Counted from the stretch's first letter, positions 14,180-54,884 are shown. The stretch is DNA of 64,000 nt from an uncultured bacterium (GCA_963844965.1 CAWJQC010000009.1:1-64000), one strand, 5' to 3'. Translations and numbers: made by a program. The notes: generated by a model from the sequence alone, not told the origin.

Positions 14180-15720
14180 GATTTTTTACGGCTGTCTATT
14201 TTCTCAATAGCCGTTCTGATCCTTCTTGCGGCCTCGTCTTTCCCCAGGATCTCCATTATTTCGTAAGGATCCGGAGACGCGGCTTGTCCGGAGAGCGCGG
14301 CCCGGAGCGGCCAGAGCACCATTCCCCTGCCCTCCTTTTCCATAAGTCCGGAGAAAGCATTCATCAAAATTTCGCGTTTCAGGACGTCGGTTTTGATTGG
14401 CTCCGTTATTTTTAAAATTTCGGTGAGGATGGTTCTGATTTTCGGAAGCGGTTCGTTGTTCCACGAAAGCAAGTTCGCGTCATAATCCGGCAATTCAAAG
14501 AAAAATCCGGCGAGTCCGAAAAATTCGTTCAGAGCCGCGAGCCGCGGACGTTCAACGTCAACGATCTTTTCCAGAAATTCCCTGGAATATTTAATTTTCT
14601 TTTCTTTCAAATATGGCTCTATCATGTCGGCGATCTTAGCCGTCGCGAGCGGCTTCAGGTGTTCTTTTTGCAGCCAGTTCAGTTTTTCCAGGTTGAAAAC
14701 CGCGCCGGCTTTCTGAACGCGCCTAAGGTCAAACACTTTCGTAAGCTCGGGCAGGGTGAAAACTTCTTTTTCGTCTTTGGGATGCCAGCCGAGAAGTGTG
14801 AGGAAGTTCACTATGGCTTCGGGCAGATACCCCTGTTTTTGGTATTCGGAAAGCGCGGTGTCGGCGAAGCGCTTGGACATCTTGCTGCGGTCGGGATTCA
14901 GGATCAGCGGCAGATGCGCGTATTCCGGCTCGTCAAACCCCAGCGCTTTTTGGAGCAGAATTTGTCTTGGTGTGTTTGAGAGGTGCTCTTCGCCACGGAT
15001 GACGTGGCTGATTTTCATTTCATAGTCGTCAATGACCGCCGCCAGATTGTAGAGAGGCGTTTCCAGATCCTTCGCGATCACCAAGTCGCCGAAAAGCGCG
15101 GCGTTGAAGCCAACCTTGCCGCGAATTACGTCCTTGAACTCCACCTGCGCTTCCGGCGTTTTGAAGCGGATTACCTGCGGTTCTTTGTCCTTGGGCGGTT
15201 CGCCGGCTGGAGGATTCAAATTGCGGCAATGGCCGCTGTATTTCGGCGGCAAACCCTGCGCGAGCATCGCCTGCCGCTCTGCTTCAAGCTCCTCTTTCGT
15301 GCAGTAGCAATAATACGCCTTGCCCTCGGCTATAAGTTTCTCCAAATATTTTTTGTAAATTTCCGTCCGCTCGCTCTGCTTGTAGGGCCCATAAGGCCCT
15401 ACCGCGGAATCACGCGGACTGAACGCGGACTTACGCTGACCTTTTCCGCGTAGTTCCGCGTCTTGTCCGCGACGGTCCGCGGTTTGGGGCCCTTCGTCCC
15501 ATTCCAATCCCAGCCACAATAGCCCGTCAATCAGTTCGGTTTCGTATTCTTTCGTTGAGCGTTCCTTGTCCGTGTCCTCTATCCGCAATATGAACTTTCC
15601 GCCGGTTTGCCGCGCGTAAAGCCAGTTAAAAAGCGCGGTTCTCGCCCCGCCCACGTGAAGCGGACCTGTGGGGCTCGGTGCAAACCGGACGCGAACAGGT
15701 TTTTCCGATGCAGCTGCCAT
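14176..15720 (-). CDS. gltX: glutamate--tRNA ligase
   Basis: 514 aa. RFAPSPTGPLHVGGARTALFNWL (HIGH region), ILRIEDTD, SKMSKR (KMSKS). Class I GluRS with an insertion. Confidence 0.88.
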   Translation of the reverse strand: MAAASEKPVRVRFAPSPTGPLHVGGARTALFNWLYARQTGGKFILRIEDTDKERSTKEYETELIDGLLWLGLEWDEGPQTADRRGQDAELRGKGQRKSAFSPRDSAVGPYGPYKQSERTEIYKKYLEKLIAEGKAYYCYCTKEELEAERQAMLAQGLPPKYSGHCRNLNPPAGEPPKDKEPQVIRFKTPEAQVEFKDVIRGKVGFNAALFGDLVIAKDLETPLYNLAAVIDDYEMKISHVIRGEEHLSNTPRQILLQKALGFDEPEYAHLPLILNPDRSKMSKRFADTALSEYQKQGYLPEAIVNFLTLLGWHPKDEKEVFTLPELTKVFDLRRVQKAGAVFNLEKLNWLQKEHLKPLATAKIADMIEPYLKEKKIKYSREFLEKIVDVERPRLAALNEFFGLAGFFFELPDYDANLLSWNNEPLPKIRTILTEILKITEPIKTDVLKREILMNAFSGLMEKEGRGMVLWPLRAALSGQAASPDPYEIMEILGKDEAARRIRTAIEKIDSRKKS

Positions 15721-29828: not shown

Positions 29829-31130
29829 TTAGGCCGCCTCTTCTTCTATTACCGGCAGAGGCGCCGGCGGGCCTCCTTTTCGCGACTCAACTTTTTCCAA
29901 AGAAGTGGTTCCAACTCCGGTTATTGGGAAGTGATAAATGGTGGCAAGCTCCTCAATGTTCAAGATCGGCTTATGGGGATTGAAAACCATATCGCGATAG
30001 TGCTCAAAGACCAGGCGTTTGCGCCATCTGAGGCGAAGCGCCACCAGCCAGTAGTGAATGGCGCGGGTCATGGTTGCCTTATCGGGCTTCAGGAGATTCA
30101 TATTCTGCGTGTTGAATTGCCTGAAGAAACCCGATATCGATGCCACATGATCGCGGCTGAACGACCCTCGTTTATCTATGTAAAGGAAGCGGATGTTGGT
30201 CTCAAAGCCGAGTTTGGCGATCTTTCTTTCTATGCCCTCCACGACCTCTCTCTGGCCAGGGGTCAGCATCAGTATCCTGAAATTGGTTCCCTCTTCTCTT
30301 TTCCTCTCCACTTCCAATGACGGGTGTTGAAACGGGGATCTCAACACCTCCTCCATCGTTACGCCGAAGATGGAGGAAAAAAACGGCTTTTTCTTTTTCT
30401 TTTCTTCTCTGCCGGTCAATTTGTCCACAATGGCCATTCCTTTGTCTTTCCAGTCGTCGCCGGTCGGCCGCGCCATTATTTGTATCCATATCCTTTCGTC
30501 GTCCTTGAGCTTAGACACCGTTTCAATGATCATGGCCATAGGATCAACCCTGCGCTCCTCCACCGCTTCTTCAAACATCGGGTAAGTCCTTATGGGATAG
30601 CAATTCGGCGCTCTTAATATTTCTTCCTCGCCGTAGACGTCAAATACTTTATTGGGCAGGACGTATGGCATTTGTTTCACGTAATCCTCCACTTCGGTTA
30701 TTTCCGCCTCCGGATACTGGGAGTAGATAGCCGACTCCATCAAGTGGCGGAACTGTGTCGGCACGCGCATGTAAAAATGAATTTCGCCGTTCTGACCCAC
30801 CAGCTCAAACGATGTCCAGTATTCCTCTTTGCCCTCCCAATATTTTTCCGTGAGCCTCAAGCCGTAGGAATAAGGTACGTGAGCGGCGGCGAAAATCTGC
30901 TCCATGGCTTTCGGAGTCTTCAATATGTTTTTCGGGACTTTGATCTCCAGAAGCTTCCAGTCTATGCCGGTCACGAAGCGGAAGTGGAGATAAATAAGCC
31001 AGAAATCCCAGAAGAAGAAAAATGCGAGGAGCGGCAGGGCTATCCACCACACGGCGCCCCAGACGCTTCTGACGCTTTCCCAAAGGCCGCTCAGAAGCGG
31101 CGAACTGGCGATTATTTGCGACGGAGTCAT
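29829..31130 (-). CDS. hypothetical membrane protein encoded immediately upstream of the TraD-like ATPase (probable operon partner)
   Basis: 433 aa with two N-terminal TM helices (WGAVWWIALPLLAFFFFWDFWLIYL). 32-nt gap to the ATPase gene. Confidence 0.5.
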   Translation of the reverse strand: MTPSQIIASSPLLSGLWESVRSVWGAVWWIALPLLAFFFFWDFWLIYLHFRFVTGIDWKLLEIKVPKNILKTPKAMEQIFAAAHVPYSYGLRLTEKYWEGKEEYWTSFELVGQNGEIHFYMRVPTQFRHLMESAIYSQYPEAEITEVEDYVKQMPYVLPNKVFDVYGEEEILRAPNCYPIRTYPMFEEAVEERRVDPMAMIIETVSKLKDDERIWIQIMARPTGDDWKDKGMAIVDKLTGREEKKKKKPFFSSIFGVTMEEVLRSPFQHPSLEVERKREEGTNFRILMLTPGQREVVEGIERKIAKLGFETNIRFLYIDKRGSFSRDHVASISGFFRQFNTQNMNLLKPDKATMTRAIHYWLVALRLRWRKRLVFEHYRDMVFNPHKPILNIEELATIYHFPITGVGTTSLEKVESRKGGPPAPLPVIEEEAA

Positions 31131-31138
31131 AGAGATTT

Positions 31139-31278
31139 CAATTTCTAATTTCTAATATCTAATTTCTAAATAACACCGAAATCCCAATGCCCAAAATTCT
31201 AAACGTTTGGGATTTGCGATTTGTATATTGGGATTTGTTTAGGATTTAGAAATTTAAATTTAGAAATTTCTGCCATAC
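31139..31278 (-). repeat. AT-rich intergenic element copy A (tagaaatt repeats + ttgggattt repeats) abutting the start codon at 31130
   Basis: Shares an exact 31-nt core aatttctaatttctaatatctaatttctaaa, followed by tgtttggg.tttg.gatttg...ttgggattt.tttagga.ttagaaatt, with copy B at 33395. Confidence 0.6.
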
Positions 31279-32487: not shown

Positions 32488-33394
32488 TTATAAGGATTTT
32501 GAGGGGCTTTTACCGAATATGAGAAGGGCGGGGCTGGCAATGAAGATAGATGAGTAAATGCCGGTAGTAACGCCGACGAGAAGCGTCAAAATAAAGTACC
32601 GCAGATTTATGGGACCCGTGAAGTACATGGCGACGAGCACCAAAATCAGCGTAAGAGAGGTGTTTATGGATCTCGCCAGGGTTTGATTGACGCTTGCGTT
32701 TATAAGGGTCTCAAAGTCCTCCCTGCCTCTGCTTTTTAACAAATTTTCCCTTATTCTGTCAAATACCACGATTGTGTCGTGCACTGAGAAACCCATGACG
32801 ACGAGGAGTGCGACCACGAAATTGCTGTCAATCTCAATTTTCAAAAAATGTCCGAGCAACGCGAGGAGACCGGCTGGAATGGCGACGTCGTGAAAAAGCG
32901 TGAGTAGCGTCACGATGCCATACTTCCAGGAGCTCACCGGCCGCGACGCCTTTCTGAAAGCGAAGGCTATGTAAAGAGAAATGCCGATAAGGACGAGGCC
33001 GATGGCGATCAAAGCGTCCTTGCGGAGCTCCACGCCGATTGACGGTCCGATGGACTGGAAACTCAATTCGTCAAACGAAGGAATTTTGTTCTTAAGGACG
33101 CTCAAATATTTTTGGTGGTCGGTTTCGTTTATCTCCCCGGCCCGCACGAGGAATGTTCCGTTGGTTGTGTCGTAAGTAGCTACGGCATCCGGCAGGGCTG
33201 AGATCGGTATTGAAAATATTCTGGACGGCAGCCGGATCCGTATTGCCGCTCGCGGCCCGGAACTGCCAGAGCGTCCCGCCCGCAAAATCAACCCCTTCTT
33301 TAAACCTGAAGATGAGCATCGCGAGGATAGCTACGCCGACCAAGACACCGGAGAGCAAATAGAAATATTTTCGATTACCGATGATGTTTAACAT
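32488..33394 (-). CDS. secF: protein translocase subunit SecF, interrupted by an apparent frameshift between about 33200 and 33290 (N-terminal 100-aa ORF 33092-33394, C-terminal ORF 32488-33291)
   Basis: N-terminal ORF: TM helix plus GVDFAGGT. C-terminal ORF: SecF/SecD RND-like TM bundle (LARSINTSLTLILVLVAMYFTG). Directly downstream of secD. Confidence 0.7.
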
Positions 33395-33492
33395 AAATTT
33401 CTAATTTCTAATATCTAATTTCTAAACAATATGTTTGGGGTTTGTGATTTGGGTGTTGGGATTTATTTAGGAATTAGAAATTAGGATTTAGG
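33395..33492 (-). repeat. AT-rich intergenic element copy B abutting the secF start codon and overlapping the secD 3-prime end
   Basis: Same 31-nt core and ttgggatttatttaggaattagaaatt tail as copy A. Confidence 0.6.
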
Positions 33493-34785
33493 ATTTGTTG
33501 TCTTGTCGTCTTTAATGAAGACCCTGAGGAACAGCCGCGTTGTCGTAATGGCGGAAAACAAGCTAACAAGAACGCCGATGAGGAGTGTCAGGGCGAAACC
33601 GCGAACAAAACTTGAAGTAAATTCATAGAGAATTATCGCCGTGATTATCGTGGACATGTTGGAATCGCGAATGGAGGGCCAGGCGCGCCGGAAGCCCTCT
33701 TCCATGGCGGATGTCTTTGAAAGTCCGTGTTTCAGTTCTTCTTTAATGCGTTCAAAGGTCAGGATGTTTGCGTCAACGGCCATACCGATGGTCAGGATAA
33801 ATCCGGCGAAACCGGCGAGACTTAGCGTTATTGGTATGAGTTTGAATACGCCGAGCGTGAGCGCGATATAAATAAGGAGCGCTAACGCGGCGTAAATGCC
33901 AAGCTTCCGATAGTACATGAGCATGAAAATAATTATAAGTACGGTGCCGATGATGCCGGCAATTATAACTTTGCGCAACGAGTCCGCTCCCAAGCTCGGG
34001 CTTATCGTCTGCTGATTGATAAGCGTGATCGGCGCGGGCAGCGCTCCGGCATTGAAACGCTCAACAAGTTTCTGCGCTTCGTCCACGGTGAAGCTGCCGG
34101 TAATCACGGCATGCCCTCCGGAAATCTGTTGCTGAACGACGGGGCAGGTCATAAGCTGATTGTCTATGAAAACAGGCAATGGCCTTTGAATATTTGCTCC
34201 CGTGAGATTTTCAAAAATCTTCGCGCCTTCGTCATTGAAAGTGATGGACACGCGCGGCGCGCGAGTTGTTTGGTCAAACTCCAGCTGTGCCCCCGTGACA
34301 TACCGTCCGGTCAGGTTTGTTACGACAAGAGTTGAACTTGCCGGGACGTTGCAGGCCGCGGCTATATCCGGCGGCATGGGGGCTACTTTCTCGCCCGGTG
34401 TGGGAGTTTCTATTTGTGCAAAATAAAGAAGCGGTGTTGAACCGATTTCCTTGATGGCGTCCGAAATATTCGTTACACCGGCCAGTTCCACGACGAGCTG
34501 GGCGTTGCCGCCTGACCTCGCGGTAAATATTTGCGGCTCACTCACACCAAATAAGTTCACTCTACGCTCTATCACGTCCCGCAGTCCGTTGATAACGGAA
34601 TCTTGGTCGGTAGCCGCTACTTGGGAGAGGTCAATCTGATAGACGAGGTGGCTGCCGCCGACCAAGTCCAGCCCCAGACGCCACGGCTGGTATCTGGCGC
34701 CGAGCCATTTCGGATAAACAAAAATCACGGCCGCGATAGCGACCAAAATTATGATTGTTAAAAACAAGCCCGGATTACGGCGCAT
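33481..34785 (-). CDS. secD: protein translocase subunit SecD
   Basis: 434 aa. N-terminal TM, large periplasmic domain, C-terminal six-TM bundle with LAGFAGFILTIGMAVDANIL typical of SecD. Confidence 0.85.
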   Translation of the reverse strand: MRRNPGLFLTIIILVAIAAVIFVYPKWLGARYQPWRLGLDLVGGSHLVYQIDLSQVAATDQDSVINGLRDVIERRVNLFGVSEPQIFTARSGGNAQLVVELAGVTNISDAIKEIGSTPLLYFAQIETPTPGEKVAPMPPDIAAACNVPASSTLVVTNLTGRYVTGAQLEFDQTTRAPRVSITFNDEGAKIFENLTGANIQRPLPVFIDNQLMTCPVVQQQISGGHAVITGSFTVDEAQKLVERFNAGALPAPITLINQQTISPSLGADSLRKVIIAGIIGTVLIIIFMLMYYRKLGIYAALALLIYIALTLGVFKLIPITLSLAGFAGFILTIGMAVDANILTFERIKEELKHGLSKTSAMEEGFRRAWPSIRDSNMSTIITAIILYEFTSSFVRGFALTLLIGVLVSLFSAITTTRLFLRVFIKDDKTTNPKS

Positions 34786-34917
34786 ACCCAGTAGTGAAAC
34801 TGTGATTATTTATAAATCAAGCAATTCACGACGTAATTACTAATTGCCCATGCAATAAACCGTAGATGCCGCAAAGATGTTTTCCGCCTACGGCGTCGCA
34901 GTTCTACTACTGGGCAT
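34786..34917. repeat. approx. 130-bp element bounded by imperfect inverted repeats (cccagtagtgaaac ... gttctactactggg), copy 1, abutting the secD start codon
   Basis: The same terminal motifs bound a second copy at 53882-54008 directly upstream of corA. Confidence 0.5.
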
Positions 34918-34961
34918 ATGGAAATTAGTGTAACAGCATTCTAACAAAAAGTAAACACTTG

Positions 34962-35034
34962 TACCCCCACTAGGAATCGGACCTAGGTCAACTGCTTAAA
35001 AGGCAGCTGCTCTACCACTGAGCTATGGGGGCTG
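34962..35034 (-). tRNA. tRNA-Lys (anticodon UUU)
   Basis: Reverse strand GCCCCCATAGCTCAGTGGTAGAGCAGCTGCCTTTTAAGCAGTTGACCTAGGTCCGATTCCTAGTGGGGGTA folds as a cloverleaf: 7-bp acceptor, D-arm AGCTCAGTGGTAGAGC, anticodon loop CTTTTAA, T-arm GGTCCGATTCC. CCA not encoded. Confidence 0.8.
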
Positions 35035-35156
35035 ACCTGTATTATAACTTCTAATTTGGTTATTTTCAAACAAACAGAGCCGCTCTAAGGCGGCCTGAAG
35101 TGGATAGGTTTATTTAGACATTAATTCGATGATTTTTGTAACCCTATCCCACCGCG

Positions 35157-43440: not shown

Positions 43441-45250
43441 GTCGACAGCCGGCCGGAAATCGGCACCTGGAGCACAGCGGCAGCGCTACACATAGACACC
43501 AACGGCAACTCGATCTTCGATCCCGACAACCTCGATTTCACCAACCGCGACCTGGTCTACAGCTTCGGCTTCTCCACCGACAACATGTTCTCCGGCAACT
43601 TCAGCCCGATCGGGGCCGCAGCGGCCGACGGCTTCGACAAGCTGGCCGCCTACGGCAAGATCGGCACGCAATATCGTTGGATCGTCAACACCAATAACGA
43701 CGGCGTGCCGGACGATGGTGGTCAACGACCCGGCGAACATCAACGGCTTGCCGGTCGCCGGCAACTTCGACGGCAACGCCGCCAACGGCGACGAGGTCGG
43801 GCTGTTCGACGGCGCAACTGGTGGCTCGACACGAATCACGACTACAAAGTCAACACGAAAATCGTCAGCTCGTTGCGGGGTTATCCGATCGTGGGCGACT
43901 TCGACGGCGACCACAACTTCGACCTGGCGACCTACCAGGTCAACCCGGTCAACAAGTTCTTCTTCGAGTTGGAGCCGCTAGTGCCACGCCGGTGTTCAAG
44001 AGCATCGATGCCGCGAGCCAGTTCGGCTACATTGGCGTTCGCTCACGGCCGGTCGCGGCCGACATCGAGCGCGACGGCACGACCGACGTGGGGCTGTGGG
44101 TGCCGGACCGCACCGGCGCCACGGGCGACCACATCGGCGAATGGTCGTTCCTGCTCTCCAATTTCGTAGACGCAGCAAGGGCACGGTCAGTACGCTGGAC
44201 CATCAGTTTTCGCCGACGCCGTTGAGCACGACCTGCTTCGCCCGCTTCGGCAACGAGTTCCCTGCCGATGGTGGGTAATTTTGATCCGCCGCTGGCCAGC
44301 GTCAAGGCGGGGCCGGCGATTTCCGGCGTGGTGCTGACCGTTTCCGGGACGAAGCCGACGGTCACTTGGGCGGTGGACGCCGGCCGAGCATTGCCGCGGC
44401 GACGTTGTTGGTGGACGGCAAGGCGGTGGCGGTTTCCAAGCTATCGGGCAGCGCGACGCACGGCAGCTATTCCGCCGGCGCTGGCGGGGTTGAACCTGGC
44501 GGCGGGCAGTCACAGCTTTGTGATCAAGGCCACGGACTCGGCGGGCACGCCCGCCACGACGCAATGCACGGGCACGTTCGACGTCGTCGGGCCGACGATC
44601 AAGGGCGTGGCACTGTCGGTTGCGAAGGGCCTACTCACGTGGAACGCGGTTTCGCCGAACGGCATGGCCGGCGTTGCCCTGATGATCGACAACAAGTCGG
44701 TGTCGAAGATCGCGCTACGCCGTCGGAATTACGCTGGGACGATGGGTTTGCCGGGGATCGGCACCACAAGTACGTCATCACGGCCACCGACAAGACCGGC
44801 AAGAGCGTGACGCTAAGCGACAGTTTTGTCGTTACCGCCCCGACGATCAGCAACGTAGCGATAGCGGCTGCGAAGGGCTTGATCACGTGGACGGCTGCGG
44901 CTTCGCGGCGTGGCGAGTGTTGGTCTGACGATCGACGGCAAGCGAGTGTCGAACACAAGCGGTCCCAACGCGGCGGGGAACTGCTACGGGTTGGCGGGCA
45001 AGCTGCCGGCGGGCACGCACAAGTACGTCATCACGGTCACTGACAAGGGTGGCAAAGCGGTGACGCTTGGCGGTTCGTTCGTGGTGAGCAAGCCGTCCAA
45101 GGCTGTGCAGAGCACCGCGATATCGAGTGCAAGCCGGCTCTGCGTTGTCCGATTCGGCCAAGGTTGCCTGGCTTTACGATCTTGGCGGTTTGACCGGCAC
45201 ATCGTCGAGTACGACCAAAAAGAGCACGTCCGCCCAAGCCGCGGACACCG
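43441..45250 (+). pseudogene. 5-prime-truncated, multiply frameshifted gene for a secreted FG-GAP / Ig-like-repeat surface protein (GC about 65%, foreign-looking)
   Basis: Protein-like segments in alternating frames: NTNNDGVPDD, AGNFDGNAANGDEVGLFDG and IVGDFDGDHNFDL (FG-GAP-like), then three approx. 100-aa Ig-like repeats (..GSHSFVIKATDSAGT.. / ..HKYVITATDKTGKSVTL.. / ..HKYVITVTDKGGKAVTL..). At least 6 frame changes. Confidence 0.5.
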
Positions 45251-45689
45251 TTATTGCCCGCTACTGAGCAGGGTTACAAGGATCGAGAAGCGGTTGAGGC
45301 GACAAGCGACATTGCCTTGTCGTAAGGATAGCATGCGTCGGGACGAGGGTTTCGAAATGGCACTATTTCGGGAGCGAACGCCTGGTCGCAGGATGGGTGC
45401 ATTTACTTACAGGATGTTTCGCCGTGAGAGTTCACCCGACAGGCGGTTGAGGATTTTTTTGAGGGTTGTGCCAACCATCTCCTGATTACCAATTGAGGTT
45501 TGGTGTTAAGAATAAGTGAAACTTGGCTCTCCGACTCGTCTGTATCGGGCGGGGATCGGCGAATCGGACGGGCCCGTCTGCCGGAGCCGTTGATCTTATA
45601 CCAGTCATTTAGAGTCGATCACCGCCGGCTCAGCCTTGCTCTGAGCCAGCCCAATAAGGGAGATTTCTGCCATGTGGTAACACCAAGCC

Positions 45690-48600
45690 ATGGGATTCCG
45701 TAACAACTCGCGACGTTCCTCCTCCGCCACGCGGCAGAAGTCGAAGCCATTCTCGATGCGAAACCGACACGCAGCATTTGAACCCCTCGAAGAGCGTCAG
45801 TTGCTGAGCGTCACGCTGACGGGCGTGCCGGATTGGGTCGCTAAGGGTACCGCCCCGATCGTTGCCGGCAACAGCGACAACGTTACGGGGATGACGCCCG
45901 CCACCAGCCTGGAAGTCGGCGCTGTGAACGCTCTGGCGGTCGACCCGACAAACACCAAGCATCTCTTTGCGGCCACCGTGAATGGCGGCATCTGGCAAAC
46001 CAACGACTTCACCGTGGCGAACCCGACCTGGACCACCAGCACGGATCTCATGCCGTCGCTGGCGATCAGCGCTATCGCCTTCAGCCCCACTAACAGCAGC
46101 GTCATCTATGCCGGAACGGGCAGCTACAGTTCCACGGGTGGCGGTGTGGGCGGGGCCGGCATGGGTGGCGGCTCTGTCGGGCTGTACAAGTCAATCAATG
46201 GCGGGGCCACCTGGCAGGTCATCGACCCGAATGGCATCTTCACCGGACTGCGCAGTCCGGCGAGTTGTCCCGAGACGCTTAACGGAGGCCAAACCGTCTT
46301 TGCGGCCGCGACCGATACGGCGGCCGGGAGCGGCGGCGTCTACCGCTCGGACGATGGCGGCGGCACCTGGACGCGGCTCTCGGGCGATAACGGCCTGCCC
46401 AACGCGGGCGTCACCGACCTGGTGGCTAATCCGGCCAACGCCAACCAGTTCTTCGCTGCGGTCGCCGGCGGATCCGGCGGCGCCGGCGGCACGGGCGGCA
46501 TCTTCAGCCTCGATCTATCGGTGAATACAACCTGGACGAACATTACGGGTAATATCAACACCATCAATCCCGGCGTGCTCAACAATGCGATCCGGGTGGA
46601 GTTGTCTGTCAGCATCGCCGGAGTGAATCCGATCTGGGCGAGCGTGATCAACAGCAGCGGCTTCTACGCCGACGTCTTCCGGGCGCCGAACGCCGCATCG
46701 CCCACATGGGCGGCCGTCGGACCCGGCGGTTTGCTTCCGGACGTTCTCCAAGGCAATCAGGGTGGCGTTCACGGCTCCATCGAGGCCGACCCCAACTCCG
46801 ACACGGTCGTGTACATCGGCGGCGATGCAAAGCAGACTGCCAGTCCCTTTAGCGGGTATCTTGCCCGAGGTGATTCCGGCACCAACACCTGAACCGGCAT
46901 GACCCCCGTCGATACCGTGACGGCGAACCCTGGCCTGACCGTCATCCCGACGGCTAATGGCGTCACCGCCGCCCCGCATCCGGACACCCGCAACCTGGTT
47001 TTTGCCTCTGGCGGAGTCCTGCTGGTATCGTGCGACGGCGGCGTCTACCAAGCCACAAACCCGACGGGGGCCGGGCCGGCGATGGCCTGGACTTCGATTA
47101 ACGGCACCCTCGAAGACAGCGAGTTTTACACGGTTTCCTATGACAACCGAAACACGGCAGCCACGGCCGACGATCTAATCGAGGGGGCCGCCCAGGACGA
47201 CAGCTCGAGTGAGCGGAACACGGCTGCCGTTTGGAACACCCAGACAGGCGGCGATGGCACCGTCGTGCTGGCTGACCCCATCAGCGACACACGCTATTTC
47301 TCGATGCAGAACTACTTCATGGGTAGTGTCATCGGCGGGGGCGGCGTCAATCGACCCGCCGGCACTGTCGCGGGCACGGGGGGCAAGGTTCTGAACGCGG
47401 CTAACGCCGGCACCAAGGCCGAGACGTTCCCCTTTACCCCCGCCTTCCAAATCAACCAGGGGGACATCGGCAGCGGGGCGGGCACGGCACGGGTTATCCT
47501 GGGGGGCAATCAGACGCTCTATGTCTCCAGCGACCAGGCAGCCAACTACACCTCGATCGGCGGCACAACTGCAAATAACCCCGACCCCGTGACCAACCTA
47601 ACCGCCCGGGTGATCACGATCGCGTTTGGTGCGGCGACCAATACGAATGCCTGCTACGTCGCTATGTCCGACGGCAACGTCACCAAGACGACGGACATCA
47701 CCACTGCCGGCGGTGGTTTCAGCCTCACGACCTTCCTTGCGACGGCCGGCGGTGAGGATGGCGCAGGGTATGGCGATCGATCCCAACGACGCGAATACGG
47801 TCTACGTAATCACTCTGACGCGCAGCCTGCGTGACCACGGACGGCGGCACTACGTGGGCCAACATCACGGACAACCTGGCATCCCTGTTCACTCCGGGCT
47901 TTGCCAGCAACGTGAGTCCGAGTCAGGAGCGGGGGATCACCCTGTTCAACAACGGCACGGCAACGAAGGCCGACGACGTGCTGTTGATCGGCGGTCCAGG
48001 CGGTGTCTTTCGGCGTCTGGCCGCATCGCCCCCGGGTGGCATTTGGAGCCAATATGGCGTTGATTTGCCCAACGTGCTGGTCGACAGTCTGCAATATGAC
48101 CAACTGAGCGATACGCTTCTGGCTGGCACTTTTGGCCGCGGCGACTGGACGGTTAGCAGCGTTGCCACCACAATTAACGCCGCTGGCGTGATGGTGATCT
48201 GCGGCGACCAGGATTTTGCCAACGAAGACGACACCTTTAAGCTGGTCCGCGACCCCGGCGATCCGTTGCTGTTGGATGTGTTTCAGAACAACACCACCAC
48301 TACCCCCGACTTCCAAGTGCCGTTGGCGGTGGTCCAGCAGATCGACGTCTTCGCCGCCGGCGGCAACGACAACTTGATTGTTGACAGCAGCAACGGCCTG
48401 ATCAGCGTCGCCGGCGGCATTCGTTACGACGCCGATCACGGCTGCCCGGGCGACACAGCCGCCGGAATCGGCGGTTTCGACCGCCTCACCCTCACCCAGA
48501 ATCTGACGGGTGGCCCCGCCATCGCTTCCGATCAATTGGCGCCGGGTGCCACCCCGGGCGACGGCATCAGCACCGTCAACGACACGGCCGGCAACGTCCA

Positions 48601-51223
48601 GACGATTGATTTCCAGTACCTCGAACCGGTTGTCGATAACGTCCCCTCGCCGACGTTCGATATCGCCGCCGTCCCCGGATTGGCGAGTCTGCTGGACGCC
48701 GACAACGCCATCGACTATACGGCCAGCCAGATTCTGCTTACCGGCGGCCGCGTGACGATCGACAATTTCGAGCCGATCGAGTTCGAGAACAAGGTCACCT
48801 TGGTCATCGACGCCGGGGCCGGCAGTGATGCGATCAATCTGAACAATCCCACCACGCCCACCGGCCTGGCGGCCATCACCGTCAACGGTGGCGACCCGTC
48901 GCTCGCCGATACGATCACCGTCAACGGCATCAAGGGGGCTACGGACCATTTCGTGGTGCTGCCCACGGCCGCAGGCAACGGAAACATTTTCGACACCGAC
49001 ACAGCGAGCGCCAAATATCGCCCCCGAGGTTCACTATTCCGGCATGCAAGGGGTCAACGTCGTGGGCCAAAACGCGGATGCGGACGCCTTGGCGGACGGA
49101 GGAACTGTGGGCGACGACTCGTTCACCTATAATCCTGGCACGACCGCGTCTTCCGGAGAGATTCACGGTTTCAACAGCGGTTTCTCCTTTGGGGCCTTGA
49201 CCTTTAACGGAATCACCGGCTGGGTCACGATGGGATCGCCTTTGGTGAACCTTACCGCAGGTTCGGCGACCGGCCTCCTCGTCCTCGGCGGCCACGACAC
49301 GGTGGTCATCGACGGGACGGCGGCTGACGATTCCTTCAATTGGGACAATTCTCTTGTATTCCTGCAGGTGCGAGTGGACACTGGCGGCGACCTTCACACC
49401 CCCATCGTCCTGGCCGGCGACCAAATCGTTGGATACGTTTCACACGTCATTGTGCAGGGGCTCGACGGCAACGACACGTTCAATGTGATTCCTGGGGGGG
49501 CCCCTGGCAGTGACTTGTTCGACATCCGCATCGAAGGAGGGGATTCCGATAGCTTTACCGACACACTAAACCTCAGCGGCGCCGTCGGCCCGGTGGGGGT
49601 GAATCTGGCCGACAGCACCGTGCCCTCCGACACCTCGATAACCGGCTACGGCAGCACCGTCACGCTCACCGGCGTCGAGTTGGTCCACATGGATGTCAAC
49701 GGCACAAACCCTGACGGTCACGGGCACGGCGGGCGCGGACCAGTTCAACTTCACGCCCACGGCGCTGGGCGTCGGCAGTTTCAAGGTCACGACCACCGGC
49801 GCCATCGTCGAGACCAGCCCGCAATTCACCTATACCGGCGTGGCGGCCACGGGCGTCACGCTCAACGGCGGTACGGGCGGATTCGACGTGCTGGGACTGA
49901 CGGCCACGGCCGGCAACGACACGATCAACGCCGTGCAGACCGACGCCACGCATTTGAGCTTCACCCTCAACGCGTTCACGCAGCCTTTCATTTTCGCCAC
50001 GCCGGCTTCGGTGCCAGGGGTCAACATCTACGCCGGCGCCGGCGATGACTTGATTCGCGTGAGCGTGACCAATGCGCTGGAAAGCACCACGCCGAGCGCC
50101 AGCCTGCGGTTCACGGTCGACGGCGGCGAGCCCAATGCCAGCGATCGGCTGCTCGTGAACGACGACGGCATTGGCGACCTGACTATCCTTCGCCAGGGCC
50201 CCGATGATCGAAGCGGCTCGGTGACGGTGGGCGTTCTGAATCCCGTTGTCTATGAAAACGTCGAGCGTCTCGACGTCACGCCGCTTAATCCCATCACCGG
50301 TGGGACCGGCACTGACGGCAACGGCCGCATCTTCGTCATGCATCAGAATCCGTTCGAGACCAACGACAGCCTCGCGAACGCACGGCGCAGATCGAGCGGC
50401 TGGCCGATTCGCCGACCAGCCCCACGATCGACCCGGCCGGCCTCAATACCCCTCCGTTTACGGTCAGCGGCGACGAAGATTGGTACGTCTTCCGTCCCAA
50501 GTTCACCACGGACTACCAAGTCCGCATCCTGTTCCATCGCATCGTGGCTTTGGCGAACGGCCGGCCTGGCCTGCCGGGCACCGGCGACTTGTCGCTCGAC
50601 ATCTACGACGCCAACGGGGCGTTGATCGTCTCCGGCGTGGCCGATGGAAACGGCGACAACCGCACGGCCATTTTCGGGGCCACGCCCACCGTGGCACAGT
50701 TCGCCACGATCTATATCCGCGTCAAAGGCGGAGAAGCGCCAGCTGGCGCCTCGGTCAATCTCTACGACTTCGACAACATCACCGCATTGACGTTCCCGGT
50801 GCCACCGGGGGTCGGCAACGTGGACGTGTTCGGTCCCCAGGTCACCGGCGTGGCCATCACCACCGCGCCGGCCTACAACTTGTTCGATCCCAAGGAATTC
50901 ACACATGGCGGCCTGGGCCCGACGCCATTGGTAAACGGCCTGACCATCAGTTTCAAGGATTTACCGGCACGCACCCCGGGCTTCGTCTATCCGGCCCTCG
51001 ATCCGGCCACGGCCAGCACCCGGGCACTTATGTGGTCAAGGGAGATGCCAACGGCATCGTTCAGATCTCGCAGATCATCGTGACCAACAACCCGCCGGCG
51101 GTGGGACAGGTGCCCACGGCGACGGTCCAACTGGTTTTCGCCCAGCCGTTGCCCGACGATCGCTTCACGTTGACGATCAACGACAATCTGCTCGATCCGG
51201 CCACCGCGTCTATAAATCCCTGA
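45690..51223 (+). pseudogene. large Planctomycetes-type secreted BNR/Asp-box repeat protein gene, disrupted by an in-frame TGA (46890) and at least 8 frameshifts
   Basis: N-terminus RRSSSATRQKSKPFSMRNRHAAFEPLEERQLLSV (planctomycete-type N-terminal motif). BNR repeats SINGGATWQ, SDDGGGTWT, TTDGGTTWA. C-terminal PPC-like segment DEDWYVFRPKFTTDYQVRI. The reading frame hops 0>0>1>2>0>1>0>2. Confidence 0.5.
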
Positions 51224-51401
51224 ACCGCCGCCTCCAAAATTTTCTGCGTTCTTTCCGTAAACATGGAGTAATCGCGAATAATGCGAATCTATTTTAAATA
51301 ATGCGAATATTATTATTAGTGTTATTTGCTATCATTCGCATTATTAGCGAACACTCCGAATTATAGTCCTATTGGCAATCTTGTCAAGCGATTGCTAATA
51401 C

Positions 51402-51430
51402 TTGACAGAAATATAATTCCATGCTAACAT
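51402..51430 (+). promoter_or_regulatory. sigma70 promoter (TTGACA-17 nt-TAACAT) for the small membrane protein gene, overlapped by a cttgtcaag/cttgacag dyad and preceded by aataatgcgaat operator-like repeats (51276-51354)
   Basis: cTTGACAgaaatataattccatgcTAACAT; two direct and one inverted copy of aatgcgaat upstream. Confidence 0.45.
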
Positions 51431-51489
51431 TACATCAGTACTTGCCCGAACGTGTTTGATGTTGGGCAAGAGAAAAGGAGAAGGGCGAC

Positions 51490-51825
51490 ATGAACTATCG
51501 TCTGAAAGTTTTGATTGCCGTGTTAATTGTGGTGCTTTCGGTCGTGGCGGCTTTGCTGTGCGGCTTTGCCAAGCTCTCGGTTGTGTTCGCGATCGCTGGC
51601 ACAGCCTTCGTTGTCAATCGGCACATCTGTCGGTGCCGCAACTGCTCAAGCTGGAGAACGCATTGGGATTTCCAGTACGTTGGGGATAATTGGAATCCTG
51701 GCCACGGAACAACACAGGAATTTAGGTGTTGCGCGGCATGTCACCAAACAACGCTTTTAGATACCCATTCAAGCTGCGCGGAGAATCCACTGAATGTTCC
51801 CGACGACTTAAACTCGAACTACTAG
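51490..51825 (+). CDS. hypothetical small membrane protein with Cys-rich C-terminus
   Basis: 111 aa, RBS aaaGGAGaagggcgacATG, two TM helices, CRCRNCSS...CCAAC. Confidence 0.45.
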   Translation: MNYRLKVLIAVLIVVLSVVAALLCGFAKLSVVFAIAGTAFVVNRHICRCRNCSSWRTHWDFQYVGDNWNPGHGTTQEFRCCAACHQTTLLDTHSSCAENPLNVPDDLNSNY

Positions 51826-51960
51826 CTTCGTCCTCCAATCCCGCTACGTCCCCCTGCTTTGGCAGAATGGACTTGGCGGGATTTTTATTTGACGGAATTG
51901 CCTATTTCCTATAAAATTTGTGCAGCTTTATCGGATTGATAATTTGCGAGGATGGTGTAA

Positions 51961-52524
51961 ATGAAAAGATTTTTTCTGCCCTGCTTTTTGCTGTTTCTAC
52001 TGCTTCCGTTTCCGTCCGTTCTCACTGCTCAAACTACGGCTCAAATAGAATCATGGAACGACGTTATCGGCGGTAAGATTGTGCCGCAGGTTGACGCCTA
52101 CGTGACGCACAAATCGTCAGAGCGTGTCGGCCAGTTTGCCTGGTTCGTTACGGGCCAGCACTGGTCCGAGGCCTACGCAGGATTGGAGCTTTATCCCAAA
52201 AAATGGATGACATTGGACATGGGCGCTGGCCTGGAGACAAACAAAAATCCATGGCGTCTCGGCGGCATTGTGTGGATGGGTAGCCAAAAACAGTCGCTTC
52301 TGACCGCATTGGAAACAGGCGGCAGCGGCTTCTGGTGGCGGAGCATATACAACCGAAAAGTTAGAAAATGTTTCGGCATCGGGATAATCGGCCAGGCGCA
52401 CAGGGGCGTCGGTCCGAGGGCGCAGTTTTGTATTCCCAGAACGCCAATCACAATATGGGCTGCCAATTTCTTCTGGAACGGCAAGCCTTCACAGGCGTTC
52501 GGGATTGTCTATGGTTTCAACTAA
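51961..52524 (+). CDS. hypothetical secreted protein (signal peptide; possible small beta-barrel, C-terminal ...GFN)
   Basis: 187 aa. MKRFFLPCFLLFLLLPFPSVLTAQT signal peptide, aromatic-rich, ends in Phe-Asn. Confidence 0.45.
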   Translation: MKRFFLPCFLLFLLLPFPSVLTAQTTAQIESWNDVIGGKIVPQVDAYVTHKSSERVGQFAWFVTGQHWSEAYAGLELYPKKWMTLDMGAGLETNKNPWRLGGIVWMGSQKQSLLTALETGGSGFWWRSIYNRKVRKCFGIGIIGQAHRGVGPRAQFCIPRTPITIWAANFFWNGKPSQAFGIVYGFN

Positions 52525-53773: not shown

Positions 53774-53881
53774 AGTTATCCTCCGTCAAGTATTCTGACG
53801 AGAGAATAGCACCGAATTGATTGAACGGCAAGCACTGGTACGTTTTGCCCGCAGCGGCCGATTCGTTTATAATAATTACAT

Positions 53882-54008
53882 GCCGGGTAGTGAAAATTCG
53901 ACCGTAAGTGTATATATCCAACAGCCCGGTTATTGATTATACAATCCAATAAAATTGTCAGAAAAAAGTCGCTGGTTATAAAAATAAGTCGAATTTCTAC
54001 TACCCGGT
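53882..54008. repeat. approx. 130-bp inverted-repeat-bounded element copy 2 (gccgggtagtgaaaattcgac ... gtcgaatttctactacccggt) abutting the corA start codon
   Basis: Terminal motifs shared with the copy at 34786-34917, including the same tca/cta asymmetry in the second arm. Confidence 0.5.
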
Positions 54009-54884
54009 ATGCCCACAACAAAACCAAACGCGGAGTGGATTGATATCCTCCATCCCAAAGCCAGGGACTTGGAGATAATCGGAAAAAGATTTCATATCCA
54101 CCCGGTAATCTTAAAAGAATTGAGGGAGCCGTCGGCCAGGTCACGCGTTGAGGCCTATGACCACTATCTGTATCTGATTTACTATTACCCGGTTTACGAT
54201 CCGGTGGAACAAACGTCGCGGCGGACAGAGATTGACTTCCTGATAACGAAAGGCGCCGTGATAACGACGCACTACGAGCCGCTTGAAGCCATCAGGGACT
54301 TTACGCCGAAGCTAGCCGAAAACACTTTGAAGCTCACCTATTTTCTGATAGAAGCGCTCCTGGATTTTGAAGAACGGCAGTTGAGGCACATTCGGGAAAA
54401 GGTTGAGGCGGTAGGCGCGGAACTGTTCAAAGATAAGGAGAAAGAAGTTCTGCGCAAGGTCTCGCGGATGAAGCGAGATGTTTCCGAATACAGAATTATC
54501 GTCAAGCACCAAGGACCGATATTGAAATCGCTTTTCAGCAGAGGCACGAAATTCTGGGGCGAAGACGCGAATGTTTACCTTGAGGACCTGATCGGCGACC
54601 ATCTCAAGATTGTTAACCAAATTGAGGATTACAGAGACGCCATTTCGGACTTTGAAGACACCAACAACCAGCTTATGAACCTGAAAACGAACGCCGTCAT
54701 GAAAACTTTCACCACGCTTTCCTTTCTCACGTTCCCCTTCATGCTCCTTGCCGCGCTTTTCAGCATGAACACGCGCGATACCCCCGTAATCAGCATGCCG
54801 AATGCTTTTTGGATTGTCTTCGGATTTATGATTGTGGCGATGGTCTCGCTCACTGTTTACTTCAAGAGAAAAGATTGGTTCTAG
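54009..54884 (+). CDS. corA: CorA-family magnesium/cobalt transporter
   Basis: 291 aa. Cytoplasmic N-domain, two C-terminal TM helices, with FSMNT in the position of the GMN signature between them. Confidence 0.7.
   Translation: MPTTKPNAEWIDILHPKARDLEIIGKRFHIHPVILKELREPSARSRVEAYDHYLYLIYYYPVYDPVEQTSRRTEIDFLITKGAVITTHYEPLEAIRDFTPKLAENTLKLTYFLIEALLDFEERQLRHIREKVEAVGAELFKDKEKEVLRKVSRMKRDVSEYRIIVKHQGPILKSLFSRGTKFWGEDANVYLEDLIGDHLKIVNQIEDYRDAISDFEDTNNQLMNLKTNAVMKTFTTLSFLTFPFMLLAALFSMNTRDTPVISMPNAFWIVFGFMIVAMVSLTVYFKRKDWF

Follow-up and report, generated by a model that had tools for sequence, protein, structure and literature searches.

In a stretch of DNA of 64,000 nucleotides from an uncultured bacterium (the window), the genes secD and corA are each preceded by an inverted-repeat-bounded element that ends directly at the start codon. 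A first-pass annotation of this DNA offered two explanations, namely a MITE- or REP-like element that inserts next to start codons, or a structured cis-regulatory leader. We therefore asked which of these explanations accounts for the two elements. The closest named relatives of CorA and SecD, as well as of the GIY-YIG nuclease described below, all belong to Paceibacterota, Parcubacteria and allied lineages, and the window is from a Patescibacteria (CPR) genome.

Anatomy of the two elements in the window

Both elements are real, though their boundaries are slightly shifted relative to the first-pass annotation, to 34787-34914 and 53883-54007. The element at secD (copy 1) and its surroundings comprise the following features:

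34787-34914: copy 1, whole element, 128 bp, with 20-bp arms paired at 19/20 positions
34787-34806, no strand: arm CCCAGTAGTGAAACTGTGAT, the 3′ arm in secD mRNA sense
34895-34914, no strand: arm GTCGCAGTTCTACTACTGGG, the 5′ arm in secD mRNA sense
34807-34894: interior, 88 nt, without detectable homolog and without an ORF of note
34783..34786, minus strand: gene-proximal 4-bp target-site duplication CATA (TATG in mRNA sense), based on the sequence and the empty-site alignment
34915..34918, minus strand: promoter-proximal 4-bp duplication CATA (TATG in mRNA sense)
34917..34915, minus strand: duplicated "first" ATG, inside the promoter-proximal duplication
34785..34783, minus strand: secD start codon ATG, inside the gene-proximal duplication
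33481..34785, minus strand: secD, the host gene of copy 1
34927..34935, minus strand: extended -10-like box of secD, TGTTACACT, 9 nt upstream of the first ATG

The -10-like box of secD was read by eye and from the alignment, where it is kept as TGTTAnAnT in four element-free orthologs, and scores under the threshold of the promoter scan. A gene for tRNA-Lys(UUU) (34961-35032, minus strand) is located 43 nt upstream of the first ATG and has its own strong promoter, TTGAAA-17-TATAAT, at 35069..35041. No terminator intervenes, and read-through transcription from the tRNA gene across the element into secD is possible.

The element at corA (copy 2) is organized as follows:

53883-54007: copy 2, whole element, 125 bp, with 20-bp arms paired at 19/20 positions
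53883-53902, no strand: arm CCGGGTAGTGAAAATTCGAC
53988-54007, no strand: arm GTCGAATTTCTACTACCCGG
53903-53987: interior, 85 nt, unrelated to that of copy 1 and to that of the corA copy in locus L002
53879-53882, plus strand: promoter-proximal flanking repeat CATG, which holds the duplicated first ATG (53880-53882)
54008-54011, plus strand: gene-proximal flanking repeat TATG, which holds the corA start codon (54009-54011)
54009-54884, plus strand: corA, the host gene of copy 2
53845-53873, plus strand: sigma-70-type promoter of corA, TTGCCC-17-TATAAT, from the promoter scan, with TATAAT kept in orthologs

Six nucleotides separate the -10 box of the corA promoter from the first ATG. The flanking repeats of copy 2 differ by one base (CATG versus TATG). 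Neither secD nor corA is preceded by a Shine-Dalgarno sequence; the neighbouring EamA gene has GGAGG.

The two copies have the core GTAGTGAAA/TTCTACTAC in common, which lies within their 20-bp arms. The deviation from perfect complementarity that the first-pass annotation had noticed in both corresponds to a tandem of G·T and A·C at stem positions 10-11, and the A·C is the sole non-pair in each stem. In the sense of the mRNA both copies read (N)ATG-CC..GTAGT..interior..ACTAC..GG-TATG, so that a start codon lies at each end of the element, and the distance between arm and host ATG, given before as one or two nucleotides, is exactly one (T).

A design-specific scan of the window for 20-bp stems returned copies 1 and 2 and no third match, and shuffled versions of the window yielded 0-2 stems of this design, even at a looser pairing of 16/20. 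When one mismatch was allowed, the 9-mer GTAGTGAAA was not enriched in the window. The signal in the window is the paired arms, not the 9-mer alone. Folding of both leader RNAs likewise revealed long-range pairing of the arms, which close the whole 5′ region (z = -2.9 and -5.5). Thus, the proposed stem over the translation initiation region has a structural counterpart in the RNA folds, but no result marks it as a regulatory device. The interiors differ as first described, their alignment score being no better than that of shuffled sequences. Moreover, a comparison of the interiors with all fetched loci revealed no homology above noise, and searches against Rfam at the gathering threshold and at E values up to 10 gave nothing relevant in either element.

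A second kind of hairpin is present at 33396-33496 and 31135-31268, where AATTTCT heptads (four to five copies) face inverted heptads about 45-50 nt away. The former ends directly at the start codon of secF (ATG at 33394, minus strand), the latter 4 nt from an ATG at 31130, and similar TTAGAAAT runs lie upstream of -10 boxes in two other CPR loci, L098 and L094. These heptad hairpins could act as promoter or UP-like elements, or they could constitute a further repeat family. In addition, the G+C content of positions 44001-52000 is 0.59-0.63, compared to 0.45-0.55 in the remaining window, and an array of the 9-mer GCGGCGCCG is found at 46458-46499; the segment 44001-52000 could be foreign or an unusual gene. 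At 15399-15483, a 39-nt inverted repeat with CGCGGA-containing units of 10 and 21 nt has 5 nt between its arms.

Empty and filled sites in orthologs

None of the four secD orthologs (76-84% identity) has the element; they show the extended -10 box TGTTAnAnT followed by 7-9 nt and ATGCGCCG. In the alignment the closest ortholog reads ...AATTTCCATATGCGCCG, and the window reads ...AATTTCCA-TATG-(128 nt)-TATG-CGCCG. Likewise, two of three corA orthologs (79-80% protein identity) are empty and have the arrangement TATAAT-N6-ATG; these are predicted leaderless genes. The third (70%) is filled at the same point, with conserved arms, an unrelated interior and 160 nt between the first and the second ATG. 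In total, six of the seven orthologous sites (four secD and three corA) are without the element, and in both alignments the comparison of empty and filled sites reveals one copy of the 4-bp target duplication at the empty site.

Taken together, these alignments show that both elements are insertions and not conserved leaders, and that secD and corA are leaderless or nearly so in the relatives (-10 box, 6-9 nt, ATG). secD and corA have each received one copy at their start codon, and each insertion duplicated (T)ATG. The promoter now faces the first ATG and then the hairpin, with the host ATG one base past it.

Spread and common anatomy of the family

The pattern GTAGTGAAA-N85-115-TTCTACTACNNGG was searched in one genome per species, amounting to 596 Gb. 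At least 120 stretches were found, compared to about 34 expected by chance from base-composition-free arithmetic over the 596 Gb. Among the 120 matches listed, about 89 records carry names of CPR lineages (Parcubacteria, Saccharibacteria, Microgenomates, Gottesman-, Moran-, Yanofsky-, Uhr-, Doudna-, Buchanan- and Harrisonbacteria and others), 16 are an unclassified "bacterium" and 15 stand under other deposited names (Gammaproteobacteria, Bdellovibrionales, Nitrospira), with the labels taken as deposited and the counts being lower bounds from an arbitrary subset. One of the otherwise-named records has a MITE subfamily in common with Gottesmanbacteria and Microgenomates MAGs. Genomes hold multiple copies: two are present in the 64-kb window, and at least 11 were found with the exact pattern alone in Parcubacteria GW2011_GWB1_40_14 (assembly LBYG01). 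The search of other genomes for the paired cores, which the first-pass annotation had suggested, revealed at least 123 further places with the same design. Hence, further copies exist, while conserved structure in orthologous leaders was not found, as indicated by the empty sites described above.

The anatomy of the family was determined from 125 copies taken from the matches listed, in which the pattern fixes the core (positions 5-13) and the size range; shorter copies (about 50-70 nt between the cores) and longer ones exist outside the pattern. From stem position 1 to 20, Watson-Crick pairing amounts to 89% or more; it falls to about 25% at position 21, and the family stem is exactly 20 bp. 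Multiple pair types, that is, covariation, occur at positions 3, 4, 14, 15 and 17-20. Positions 5-9 and 12-13 are invariant and positions 10-11 are G·T and A·C, all of these lying within the stretch fixed by the pattern. Since the arms covary, their structure is conserved. The family core, GTAGT-GA-AA / TT-CT-ACTAC, places the tandem G·T and A·C precisely in the middle of the stem, and each arm pairs with the other arm and not with itself.

Of the 125 copies, 70 lie between exact 4-bp direct repeats, and many others match at three of four bases. The flanking repeats (TATG, CATA, AATG, TCAA, TTGA, CAAG, CTTG, CAGG, AAAG, ATAA and others) vary in step on both sides, indicating a true target duplication and not a fixed end sequence. 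The interiors are variable in sequence and range from about 30 to 290 nt in length; 102 of 125 are singletons, and there are a few subfamilies. One of these has seven members with about 81% identity in seven different MAGs, which apparently reside at different host genes, as suggested by their differing first codons. Tandem copies with one common ATG were found in four loci (L057, L088, L093 and L121).

Insertion sites

In 96 of the 125 copies the element adjoins an ORF of 50 codons or more that begins within the duplication. The arm and the ATG are usually separated by one base (T). Relative to the gene, the core is oriented one way in 62 of these copies and the other way in 34. Motifs resembling a Shine-Dalgarno sequence precede the first ATG in 8 of 95 copies (8%), the crude six-frame ORF baseline being 9%. 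Roughly half of the copies (counted among those listed) have a -10-like TAnnnT hexamer 3-10 nt before the first ATG, versus 25% in the baseline, which consists of crude six-frame ORFs and a range of 4-10 nt. The targets look leaderless. Because Shine-Dalgarno-like motifs are rare in the baseline as well, these counts lend moderate support to a specificity for leaderless genes. The preference for start codons could in part reflect purifying selection in a gene-dense genome together with a sequence preference for (T)ATG, instead of true targeting.

The other 29 copies sit elsewhere. Elements were found inside -35 hexamers (L073, L094 and a TCAA/TTGA group), where an intact TTGACA is retained on the gene side, in a Shine-Dalgarno site (L107) and at the 3′ end of a tRNA-Tyr gene (L009). 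Moreover, two elements with a CAAG duplication lie in the anticodon loop of tRNA-Gly(CCC) genes (L042:4020-4225, L099:4860-5060, minus strand). Their interior is a complete, ARAGORN-valid tRNA-Gly(CCC), so that the element disrupts the tRNA gene but also brings a substitute for it. The outer and the inner tRNA gene are nearly identical in their 3′ halves.

In two different MAGs (L058:4920-5050 and L122:200-340), elements interrupt the same type of sequence, GGGGAAAG|GTCG...., which in L058 lies about 10 nt downstream of a TATAAT box and has no Rfam match. This target looks like the 5′ end of a small RNA or leader. No element was observed inside an rRNA gene of the fetched loci; in the three loci with rRNA motifs the elements are outside. 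In one locus (L022, minus strand), the 16S rRNA 515 and 1392 motifs are located at 1385 and 3559 (reverse-complement coordinates), about 2.2 kb apart instead of the usual 0.9 kb or so, which indicates that this 16S rRNA gene contains about 1.3 kb of insertions, in line with reports on CPR. The hairpin element of the same locus lies outside the rRNA gene.

Coding relatives with a GIY-YIG nuclease

Longer elements of about 300 bp with the same arms contain one ORF, which encodes a single-domain GIY-YIG protein of 85-95 amino acids (L054, L056 and L121). The only domain matches of this protein are PF01541 and the overlapping PF10544. It is highly conserved, with the GIY, YIG, Arg, His-Asn and Glu positions kept, and among the 691 matches of the protein family every named one is from CPR. 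By sequence, the nearest solved structures are UPF0213 proteins (1zg2 and 1ywl) and SLX1, a structure-specific nuclease. The 64-kb window itself holds no GIY-YIG gene.

In a protein-first search that was blind to the arms, 80 metagenomic loci were fetched. In 50 of them the ORF lies between exact core motifs, and variant cores are present in most others. Among 39 distinct well-formed stems around the GIY-YIG ORF, 36 keep the tandem mismatch at positions 10-11, with the order G·T/A·C in 14 and A·C/G·T in 22. The mismatch persists even where neighbouring pairs have covaried (GTAGAG.., GGCAGT.. and GTTGTAG..). As it is kept in stems that were found without reference to the arms and amid covaried neighbours, this wobble pair in the middle of the stem is under selection in the folded form and not a by-product of the search pattern.

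An automated test placed the nuclease ORF in the same orientation as the host ORF whose ATG adjoins the 3′ arm in 32 of 59 loci; most of the others visibly read ...GGGTATG and had a slipped stem register in the test. Relative to the GA/AG core, the ORF occurs in either orientation. Several ORF calls, among them P0241, P0249 and P0252, start with MPxSETS...I-MFYVYV, which corresponds to the duplicated first ATG read in frame through the arm. Since the protein begins at this ATG, the coding copies appear to borrow the promoter and the start codon of the host gene.

The arms of eight GIY-YIG loci (L136, L138, L139, L141, L143, L153, L155 and L163) start with ATCCCGTAG..., and their host genes begin with ATGGA.... 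As the hosts all begin in this way, the "AT" of the host ATG forms the last stem pair in this subfamily. Its duplication register is ATGG, unlike the TATG type.

Assessment of alternative explanations

Given these results, the elements in the window are probably non-autonomous, MITE-like copies of a Patescibacteria-wide family of GIY-YIG hairpin mobile elements. They are short and non-coding, are bounded by terminal inverted repeats, duplicate a target site whose length is fixed and whose sequence differs between copies, vary between presence and absence and occur in multiple copies; by sequence, they fit the structural definition of a MITE, with the GIY-YIG protein as candidate mobilising enzyme. 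The suggestion of a MITE- or REP-like insertion next to start codons is therefore borne out by the ATG-containing 4-bp target-site duplication, the empty sites in orthologs, the multi-copy spread and the GIY-YIG coding relatives. The structured leader that had been offered beside it, be it a riboswitch, a thermometer or an attenuator, would hide the start codon of secD or corA in the stem until a signal arrives. Such a device would suit a thermodynamically unusual stem that joins the region of the start codon to the 5′ end of the transcript, and riboswitch control is common among corA genes. However, the absence of the element in four of four secD and two of three corA orthologs, the unrelated interiors, even between two corA copies, and the lack of an Rfam match even at E = 10 all argue against it. 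Moreover, the same arms are found at dozens of unrelated genes, in both orientations and at non-leader sites, and the mismatches lack a G·U bias in the mRNA sense. By these comparisons the leader reading appears largely refuted, and scarcely any likelihood is left for it. An accidental resemblance of two inverted repeats that happen to share a 9-mer can be dismissed: the 9-mer with one mismatch is indeed not enriched in the window, but both stems are paired at 19/20 positions with the same core and the same mismatch, and at least 123 further copies have the identical design.

An extension of the mobile-element reading would assign the stem a role in RNA. The element would then resemble an intron or intervening sequence, with the 20-bp stem as a processing signal, e.g., for RNase III. 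Its removal would restore a leaderless mRNA, and insertions at start codons, possibly also in rRNA and tRNA genes, would be tolerated. The sharply bounded stem of 20 bp, about two helical turns, is in line with this idea, as are the location of the first ATG and of the stem's 5′ end at the expected start of transcription and the complete tRNA-Gly in the hairpin loop of L042, which cleavage of the stem could release. In addition, short non-intron insertions and GIY-YIG-encoding ones are reported from CPR rRNA genes (PMC11270868). On the other hand, none of the fetched loci has an element inside an rRNA gene, G·U is not favoured over A·C in the transcribed sense, and a cut inside the stem would leave a short leader instead of a true leaderless end. 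We consider this extension rather unlikely. Very unlikely, in our view, is mobilization as a REP or REPIN by a RAYT (Y1 HUH) transposase, or as a classical MITE of a DDE insertion sequence, with the GIY-YIG gene as an unrelated passenger. The elements do form hairpins and are dispersed and intergenic, and their arms contain GTAG...CTAC, a GTAG head being reportedly typical of REPs. However, the arms are not palindromes singly and pair with each other across 85-300 nt, and they are flanked by a 4-bp target duplication; to our knowledge, the RAYT-related IS200/IS605-type enzymes leave none. Moreover, no gene other than GIY-YIG was found between the arms, which it occupies in 36 of 39 cases anchored on the protein, and in about 0.9 Mb of fetched CPR DNA none of the longer elements combined these arms with a transposase.

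Group I and group II introns were rejected as candidates, since a conserved catalytic RNA core is lacking: the interior is variable in sequence and length (about 30 to 290 nt) and has no Rfam intron match.

Relation to known systems

Among MITEs, the Correia (NEMIS, Neisseria) and ERIC elements are non-coding, 100-160 bp long and multi-copy, have terminal inverted repeats and a target-site duplication, and frequently form a long hairpin in the transcript of the gene downstream. The elements described here are likewise short, non-coding and multi-copy with terminal inverted repeats and a target-site duplication, but there is no sequence similarity, and their arms covary and keep the central tandem mismatch. 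Correia elements have a TA duplication and 26-bp repeats, and we know of neither a cognate GIY-YIG gene nor start-codon precision for Correia or ERIC. The REPIN/RAYT system is similar in its dispersed hairpin repeats, the bracketing of one small nuclease-type gene and the GTAG motif. However, its enzyme is HUH Y1 and not GIY-YIG, REP units are individually palindromic unlike the arms here, and REPINs lie downstream of genes whereas these elements are found at start codons. GIY-YIG nucleases are known as homing endonucleases, as repair enzymes, from Penelope retroelements and, recently, as hairpin-associated Ssn nucleases. We know of no established transposase among them, nor of a GIY-YIG enzyme that serves as the engine of a bacterial cut-or-copy transposon.

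The Ssn nucleases are GIY-YIG proteins of 94 amino acids, and a hairpin repeat lies on either side of their genes (NTS-ssnA-NTS; Nat Commun 2025, PMC11893778). The enzyme binds its DNA hairpin only as single-stranded DNA and cuts a few nucleotides away in the flank, and the repeats are also dispersed genome-wide without the gene; the authors note the IS-like architecture, and Ssn is interpreted as modulating transformation and not as serving mobility (PMC11893778). A single-domain GIY-YIG protein of about 90 amino acids (85-95 here) and a gene bracketed by hairpin-forming repeats are common to both systems. In contrast to Ssn, where each repeat forms its own hairpin of 20-50 nt, the two 20-bp arms here pair across the whole element, and descriptions of Ssn include neither a 4-bp target duplication nor insertion at start codons. 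By analogy, the Ssn/NTS pairs are the closest precedent for a GIY-YIG protein that would read a hairpin; Ssn forms the subfamily cd10448, and the nuclease here, with UPF0213 and SLX1 as nearest solved relatives, was compared with it by description. CPR rRNA genes contain short insertions (<200-250 bp) and GIY-YIG-encoding ones that are neither group I nor group II introns (J Bacteriol 2024, PMC11270868). The hairpin family resembles these, as well as intervening sequences excised by RNase III, in organism group, short size and GIY-YIG coding; it may be the same as the rRNA-gene insertions, a lead that is based on a comparison by description. In the literature on Patescibacteria/CPR, Saccharibacteria MITEs, leaderless genes and GIY-YIG, we found no prior description of the hairpin element and none of start-codon-targeted hairpin elements in CPR.

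Proposed mechanism and host-gene expression

By analogy with the hairpin-binding nucleases, the GIY-YIG protein may act in trans on the folded single-stranded hairpin, which it would recognize by the central tandem mismatch, and a cut by the nuclease at the base of the stem would give rise to the 4-bp duplication. Both stem ends lie about 10 bp away from the mismatch at the centre of the 20-bp stem. A protein centred there could, speculatively, reach the junctions of the element with its flank as well as those of the arms with the interior. Such a dual reach would fit the sharp stem boundaries, the exchangeable interior, the tRNA cargo and the occurrence of the ORF in either orientation to the GA/AG core. 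The coding copies would exploit the host promoter and the duplicated ATG, some ORFs being in frame from this ATG through the arm. Alternatively, the GIY-YIG nuclease could be selfish cargo and not the mobilising enzyme.

The host gene would remain expressed if a double-strand-specific RNase removed the 5′ hairpin, yielding a near-leaderless mRNA, or if ribosomes started at the second AUG. An N-terminal extension of the host protein was rejected: every non-coding copy has stops after the first ATG, usually within 10-30 codons, and the bias of element lengths towards multiples of three (43/31/21) is weak. In non-coding copies, the distance between the end of the short ORF and the second ATG is variable, which lends no support to coupling by termination and reinitiation. 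An archaeal-style TATA box or internal promoter in the element was likewise rejected, as the promoter seen in the orthologs precedes the first ATG; the element has no fitting internal promoter, and its 3′ arm contains no TAnnnT hexamer at the right distance. The counts of G·U and A·C mismatches have no orientation bias that would point to selection in the mRNA sense. How secD and corA would be translated behind a 20-bp stem without a Shine-Dalgarno sequence is explained by none of these results.

It is possible, and we put this forward tentatively, that the family represents a new class of bacterial mobile element, in which a minimal GIY-YIG nuclease reads a 20-bp hairpin with a central tandem wobble. 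The element would specifically colonise the point at which both transcription and translation of leaderless genes begin; by duplicating the start codon it would gain the host promoter and the first ATG for its own expression, and removal or bypass of the hairpin at the RNA level would render the insertion phenotypically silent. If so, the element would be an intron-like parasite of 5′ ends that leaves the host its second ATG, with an interior that is exchangeable as cargo, e.g., the tRNA-Gly in the anticodon loop of a tRNA-Gly gene.

For annotation, the elements account for unusual N-terminal extensions ("MPxSETS...") in called GIY-YIG genes and for spurious long 5′ regions ahead of essential Patescibacteria genes, and the conserved arms provide a simple marker of CPR DNA in metagenomes. 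With its target duplications, MITE derivatives and phylum-wide spread, the family would render the question of GIY-YIG transposition directly testable. Moreover, the precision at start codons constitutes a natural experiment that sets leaderless, Shine-Dalgarno-less translation against a structured insert of 130-300 nt, which is valuable since CPR bacteria have almost no genetics.
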